A DNA stretch of 51,277 nt from a virus (Duplodnaviria; Heunggongvirae; Uroviricota; Caudoviricetes). The position numbers and the translations under genes were made by a program. The DNA lies in IMG/VR virus record IMGVR_UViG_2851955134_000001. One strand, written 5' to 3'. Under the pieces are notes generated by a model that worked only from the letters and a program-made list of their open reading frames with translations, made no database searches and had not been told where the DNA came from. Below, one piece after another: positions 29,022-29,082 of the stretch (positions are counted from its first letter, which is position 1; each line of letters starts with the position of its first letter).

Positions 29022-29082
29022 CAAAACCTCCTGACAAAGATACCGTGCGACCACGGTCGCACGCTCCTGAATACATGCCCTG

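Follow-up and report, generated by a model that had tools for sequence, protein, structure and literature searches.

The palindrome and its surroundings

The IMG/VR record IMGVR_UViG_2851955134_000001 is a stretch of 51,277 nucleotides (nt), here called the window, that holds a lambdoid prophage whose orientation is reversed relative to lambda. Between the cos region and the lysis genes it carries a passenger cassette with two open reading frames (ORFs) of 164 and 288 amino acids (aa), and just upstream of the 288-aa gene lies the subject of this report, a perfect inverted repeat (IR) of 8+2+8 nt, GTGCGACCACGGTCGCAC, at 29045-29062. The pair C29044/G29063 lengthens this palindrome to 9+2+9. 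The ATG of the 288-aa ORF (29021, minus strand) is 23 nt downstream and its GGAGG about 12 nt downstream on the same strand, while on the other side the palindrome is followed by copy B of a repeated segment (29078-29255). An earlier reading, made from the sequence alone, had pointed out the 8+2+8 palindrome and its place between the 288-aa gene start and repeat copy B, both of which are borne out here, and had proposed that it is a repressor operator controlling the module, possibly for the nearby orphan ribbon-helix-helix (RHH) protein. Our analysis replaces this speculative operator with a more precise identity, that of the partition centromere of N15-type phage-plasmids.

By shape alone the palindrome is statistically unremarkable. 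Perfect palindromes with a 2-nt loop and arms of 8 nt or more number five in the window, where dinucleotide shuffles give ~1.1; for arms of 9 nt or more and loops of 0-10 nt the count is 11, compared with 2.1 +/- 1.5 after shuffling. The significance of this palindrome comes not from its geometry but from its sequence, which is identical to a known site and recurs elsewhere. Within the 51-kb window it is a single copy, with no further copy at up to three mismatches. Other long perfect palindromes in the window are found at 19374-19395, 46910-46937 and 49796-49817. One of the long palindromes, TCAGGCCACCGCGGTGGCCTGA, lies between ORFs 18317-19345 and 19403-19750 in the lambda-like head-gene region, a position that matches the annotated putative terminator between the decoration and major capsid genes of N15; of the remaining ones, one follows the exonuclease gene and one is within a second integrase-like gene beyond tRNA-Asn.

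Relation to the N15 centromere

A full-text literature search with the 18-mer led to a study of N15 SopB (PMC7205306), in which the four N15 repeats, IR1-IR4, are tabulated as GTGCGACC-NN-GGTCGCAC (Table 4 of that study; Ravin & Lane 1999 cited there). The window 18-mer is identical at 18 of 18 positions to the IR1 and IR4 oligonucleotides of that study, and also to position 45561 of the N15 record. These IRs are bound by N15 SopB; a fourfold IR array placed in the chromosome at att-lambda allows N15 SopB foci to form, and in a 4xIR-pcry::lacZ construct the adjacent promoter is silenced by N15 SopB, while F SopB is non-functional with the N15 IRs (PMC7205306). According to PMC2910045, SopB makes contact with 18 bp, and the only difference between the N15 and F centromeres is a single nucleotide in each half-site, position 4/4'.

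The comparison with F can be taken further. The F plasmid sopC consists of tandem 43-bp repeats, each with a 16-bp SopB site TGGGACCACGGTCCCA, and shares with the N15-type site the palindrome architecture, the central GACCACGGTC and a binder of the same family (49% identity between F and N15 SopB). It differs at position 4/4', which is C/G in F and G/C in N15-type sites and sets the specificity, and in arrangement, the F sites being clustered in tandem beside sopAB whereas N15-type sites are dispersed. In the N15 record the IRs are located at 33479 (one mismatch, in the published IR1 context, inside repA), at 35930 (after Q), at 41124 (~20 bp upstream of the annotated late-promoter -35) and at 45561 (IR4). 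The last of these is placed between genes 58 and 59, in the stretch that separates the lysis genes from cos, so that the window site and IR4 have in common not only the 18-bp sequence but also the intergenic location.

An orthologous site is present on the E. coli plasmid pEC21Z151-46K, which encodes a protelomerase (TelN), CyRepA1, SopA and a SopB 74% identical to that of N15, and which has five IRs, two of them flanking a ~180-bp segment. Its IR at 17971 matches the window site at 58/58 nt (20 nt on each side included), and the same 288-aa gene starts 23 nt downstream. The sequence-only reading had named homologous modules as a place to look for the palindrome, and there it is indeed found: when 16 loci were chosen by homology to the 288-aa protein alone, with the motif not a criterion, 15 had a perfect IR at the same position. 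Most of these loci show a multi-IR, N15-like arrangement, with 3-4 IRs per 10-20 kb. The sole exception, locus L250, has a lambdoid backbone, a DUF3950 gene and an IR decayed by two mismatches.

The sequence also recurs well outside this context. A scan of viral contigs gave at least 120 stretches with the exact 18-mer, often with 3-5 copies on one contig, and 164 IR copies group into ~19 unrelated flank families whose common part is the 18-bp core only. Just outside the core, the +/-1 positions are complementary in 15 of the 19 families (Y...R; C.G or T.A), with positions +/-2 to +/-4 near chance. PhiR46_1 and YDC107_1, which share the cargo of the window, carry the 18-mer once more, at the distal end of the segment. 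As to taxonomic range, a centre-degenerate motif scan of genome contigs was uninformative, yielding mostly chance matches in high-GC Actinomycetota and similar, because only 16 specified bases were sought over 596 Gb. Within two flank families the central dinucleotide is either AC or GT, i.e. the loop is inverted (viral loci L004-L123; L001 at 5146/5366/8406). Loop inversion together with complementary +/-1 bases suggests either a recognition site of 20 bp or an exchange between IR copies, by hairpin-mediated template switching or gene conversion.

We put a probability of roughly 0.8 (0.82) on the reading that the palindrome is an N15-type SopB centromere site, borne by the cassette as an orphan in a chromosomally integrated lambdoid prophage. 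It would belong to a known class of element, here in a new and probably inert context, and the match to the published sites predicts that N15-type SopB could bind the window copy. On an N15-type phage-plasmid, a dimer of SopB, a ParB-family protein, reads both arms by its helix-turn-helix and nucleates a partition complex, after which the SopA ATPase segregates the linear element. N15-like genomes have four or five such IRs dispersed between genes, and one of these directly precedes the 288-aa gene.

The sequence-only reading was right in taking the palindrome for a sequence-specific protein-recognition site, as its identity to the N15 SopB sites indicates; the protein and the role that it proposed are not supported. 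An operator through which a prophage-encoded regulator, either the RHH-like DUF3950/YlcI protein or a repressor, controls the cassette would suit the position just upstream of the ribosome-binding site of the gene and the conservation of the site upstream of homologous genes, and DUF3950 does resemble a small DNA-binding protein. However, the site and DUF3950 are not co-inherited. DUF3950 is a lambda/434 backbone gene, and phage 434, which carries it, shows no IR-like site even when four mismatches are allowed; conversely, the complete genomes of N15 and pEC21Z151-46K, with 4-5 IRs, have no DUF3950 homolog. The gene is seen in only one of the 120 IR-bearing viral loci listed, and in one of the 16 loci gathered through the 288-aa protein, namely L250, whose IR is decayed. 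A prophage repressor fits no better: there is no other IR copy in the window at up to three mismatches, half-sites occur at chance frequency, and neither IR nor half-site recurs in the immunity region. A crude consensus scan for promoters revealed no sigma-70-like site on the minus strand over 29021-29400, and a documented binder of the sequence already exists in SopB (PMC7205306). We consider such an operator highly improbable. Operator-like action is conceivable only in trans, as SopB-nucleated silencing of the neighbour gene, given an N15-like phage-plasmid.

Another possibility is that the palindrome acts as an RNA hairpin, either as a weak intrinsic terminator insulating the cassette from the Q-antiterminated late transcript of the lysis genes, or as a stem-loop in the 5' untranslated region that stabilises or modulates the 288-aa mRNA; both roles are compatible with a centromere origin. 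A terminator consensus scan flags the minus strand (8-bp stem with six G-C pairs, tail GUAUCUUUGU), the isolated hairpin reaches -14 to -15 kcal/mol with z-scores of -2.5 to -3.3, and the N15 record labels IR4 solely as a 'putative rho-independent terminator'. Clean U-tracts follow some IR copies elsewhere, such as AGUUUUUAG in an IR3-type context, and the complementary +/-1 positions in 15 of the 19 families also agree with a stem. At the same time, the U-tract in the window is short and interrupted, the tail GUAUCUUUGU passing a loose scan, the plus strand is without one, and many IR contexts are without a U-tract on either strand. When folded in its 101-nt context the sequence is not significant (z = -1.29), and the full hairpin is not kept in the minimum-free-energy structure. 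The site is followed by a start codon 23 nt downstream and does not stand at the end of a transcription unit. Moreover, the arms are invariant over 19 unrelated contexts with no compensatory changes, covariation is limited to the +/-1 pair, and the changes in decayed copies are one-sided; invariant arms and one-sided decay fit a protein-recognition sequence rather than a structure-only element. The terminator hairpins at lambdoid moron and module boundaries are similar in being G+C-rich stem-loops at a module junction, with N15 IR4 annotated as one, and they differ from the window site in its sequence, which is invariant across unrelated contexts, in its weak U-tract and in its documented binding protein. 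We regard a role as a terminator or 5' stem-loop, which would be secondary to the centromere origin, as rather unlikely. For annotation, hairpins of this sort near cos and the late genes, which are called putative terminators even in the N15 record, become recognisable as SopB sites. Rfam gave no match for 28990-29440, comprising segment copy B and the IR, even at E <= 1, and a gathering-level scan of the whole window returned unrelated RNAs only and none for the IR.

The cassette as a mosaic insertion

The features of the locus and the prophage are listed in Table 1.

Table 1. Features of the window discussed in the text; positions are counted from the first nucleotide of the window.
Feature	Position	Strand	Remarks
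Terminase A and Nu1 genes	23061-25470	-	then cos region
DUF3950/YlcI gene	25894-26088	+	then segment copy A
Segment copy A	26093-26267	.	directly after DUF3950 gene as in phage 434; left homologous flank
IS5-family element (ISKpn26-like)	26309-27521	-	25-nt imperfect terminal inverted repeats (I1); DDE transposase
164-aa ORF, phrog_3054	27582-28076	-	second cassette gene; hydrophobic
288-aa gene, phrog_2571	28155-29021	-	ORF; first cassette gene, directly downstream of IR; common to N15-like phage-plasmids
Putative N15-type SopB centromere site (IR)	29044-29063	.	core 18-mer GTGCGACC-AC-GGTCGCAC at 29045-29062
Segment copy B	29078-29255	.	adjoins IR, runs into bor upstream region as in phage 434/lambda; right homologous flank
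bor	29437-29730	+	then Rz/Rz1, lysozyme, further on Q
Tyrosine integrase	47157-48182		abuts tRNA-Ser(CGA); then host mtfA, tRNA-Asn

The cassette is enclosed by segment copies A and B, which are ~180-bp direct repeats (D1, D2) of 81-95% identity. Both outer flanks are 434-like (93-97% identity), and phage 434 itself runs from the DUF3950 gene through the segment to bor with nothing interposed; in our survey of 5,426 complete E. coli genomes, to which all counts of complete genomes below refer, the segment is found between the DUF3950/ylcI gene and bor in ~3000. PhiR46_1 likewise has the segment duplicated around the cassette. With the IS5 element removed, window positions 26099-29254 are collinear with PhiR46_1 at 95% identity, the 288-aa gene alone also having 95% nucleotide identity, so the unit common to the two consists of a segment copy, the 164-aa gene, the 288-aa gene, the IR and a second segment copy. 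The IS5 element (~96-97% identical to ISKpn26-like elements) sits between segment copy A and the 164-aa gene; its insertion is specific to the window and outside the ancestral cassette, and its junction with the cassette was found in none of the complete E. coli genomes searched.

Homology to lambda and 434 restarts at ~29068-29073, only a few bases past the palindrome, which puts the palindrome on the cargo side of the insertion. In other genomes the IR is an exact mosaic breakpoint. When complete E. coli genomes were searched with a 251-nt probe, many matches started at query position 115, which is 29044, the first base of the IR, and had a different left partner, while others stopped at query position 133, which is 29062, the last base of the IR, and had a different right partner. 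Strain LH50-c matched the 251-nt junction at 100%, yet its prophage is another one, lacking both IS5 and bor.

The simplest history would be that an N15-like phage-plasmid and a lambda/434-like phage exchanged the passenger cassette (164-aa gene, 288-aa gene and IR), in a direction that we infer rather than observe, by a homologous double crossover in the two ~180-bp segment copies, and that the IS5 element would have inserted after this exchange. The locus offers a concrete case of genes moving between plasmid-phages outside the chromosome and lambdoid prophages integrated in it, with a centromere palindrome exactly at the mosaic breakpoints.

The products of the two cassette genes have matches in PHROG only, with no Pfam, PADLOC or NCBIfam match, and the family searches gave no sign that either is DNA-binding or ParB-like, nor any hint of binding to the IR. 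Homologs of the 288-aa protein were found in Escherichia only, at 78-95% identity. The likely true start of the 164-aa ORF is an internal ATG near 28031, which would give a product of ~149 aa; its counterparts are annotated as 450-nt coding sequences in the viral loci L001, L264 and L265. An AlphaFold2 model of a 288-aa/164-aa cassette protein, made from a shallow alignment, is of low confidence (mean predicted local distance difference test score, pLDDT, 51.7; predicted template modelling score, pTM, 0.36). The two-gene cassette (27582-29021) is confined to Escherichia phage-plasmids and prophages and is a candidate lysogenic-conversion or exclusion module. We also considered whether this module is the telocin toxin-immunity cassette of telomere phages (PMC12042878) and rejected that identity, as telocin sits between repA and telN, an unrelated position.

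An orphan site in an integrated prophage

The prophage is integrated, since its integrase gene adjoins tRNA-Ser and is followed by host mtfA and tRNA-Asn. The window has no homolog of N15 SopB, SopA, TelN or RepA (tblastn, best E 0.5-3). An integrated element with only one IR and none of these proteins makes the site an orphan. The difference from the known replicons is clear: N15 and pEC21Z151-46K have 4-5 IRs each, against the one copy in the window, which stands in an integrated lambdoid prophage without SopA, SopB and protelomerase genes, where partition is irrelevant. As the prophage encodes no cognate binder, the IR would not work as a centromere in cis. Its occupation would depend entirely on N15-type SopB supplied in trans by a phage-plasmid, either co-resident or infecting, and in this prophage the IR is probably inert.

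Such orphan copies are not confined to the window. The full junction is present in 32 of the complete E. coli genomes, ~14 times on plasmids of 46-75 kb and ~18 times on chromosomes, and a 52-nt probe centred on the IR identified 33 chromosomal and 15 plasmid places. N15-type sopB (at least 80% nucleotide identity), on the other hand, was found in only 16 of 20,395 E. coli records, and among the complete genomes in none of the strains with chromosomal full-junction copies. In strain Z1323HEC0355, a chromosomal IR-segment junction with a different left partner (NZ_CP148363.1) is accompanied by an N15-like plasmid of 45.9 kb with sopB (NZ_CP148365.1), a natural coexistence of an orphan site and its cognate SopB. 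The YDC107 chromosome record NZ_CP025707.1 has N15-type sopA/sopB (99.9% identical) at ~17.9 kb; the phage YDC107_1 is also deposited separately (46.7 kb), and the chromosomal genes may be an assembly artefact or an integrated copy.

Changes that break the palindrome on one side are seen in chromosomal or lambdoid copies, with one mismatch in L246 (3580) and two in L249 (3616) and L250 (7920), and with two, also one-sided, in the second IR of L245 (3837). Phage-plasmid copies examined are perfect at the position of the window site. Roughly 3-4 of ~22 chromosomal copies are thus decayed, against 0 of ~15 plasmid copies, a comparison of low power between copies that are not independent. The pattern fits maintenance of the IR only where SopB is present, and the excess of chromosomal decay is suggestive.

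Several observations weigh against reading the window copy as a stranded centromere site. Most chromosomal junction copies (33 chromosomal places) are still perfect, and this persistence could reflect recent transfer or some selected function; what is visible is the prophage window only, whose strain of origin is absent from the complete E. coli genomes surveyed, and the host may have a co-resident N15-like phage-plasmid; and the hairpin does score as terminator-like in the consensus scan. The persistence of perfect IRs at 33 chromosomal places would also agree with an orphan site that works in trans. Such a site would capture SopB from an N15-like phage-plasmid, whether incoming or co-resident, and thereby titrate or mis-pair its partition complexes (centromere incompatibility as inter-element competition), or let spreading SopB silence the 288/164-aa cassette. 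N15 SopB does form foci on IR arrays at att-lambda and silence an adjacent promoter (PMC7205306), and a chromosomal IR coexists with an N15-like plasmid in at least one strain (Z1323HEC0355). However, each prophage has one site where the published assays had four, N15-type sopB is rare (16/20,395 records) and missing from nearly all strains with chromosomal copies, and some chromosomal copies decay. For these reasons we think a role in trans quite improbable for the site. A broader version, to which we give similarly little credence, is that chromosomal orphan IRs serve as SopB decoys, destabilising a rival or silencing the cassette, and that the palindrome is also a preferred crossover point shuttling cassettes between plasmid-phages and integrated phages. 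The 33 chromosomal places count orphan copies in this context alone, and any incompatibility or silencing effect of such copies on phage-plasmids would be hypothetical.

Outside this locus, the early region of the prophage has gathering-level Rfam matches to sok antitoxin RNA, DicF, isrK and C4 antisense RNA (36743-36917, 42958-43009, 43255-43331, 43356-43443). A homolog of the QueH-family epoxyqueuosine reductase (Pfam E = 1e-65) is encoded on the minus strand at 36985-37650, an unusual cargo gene that adjoins a hok/sok-like locus.
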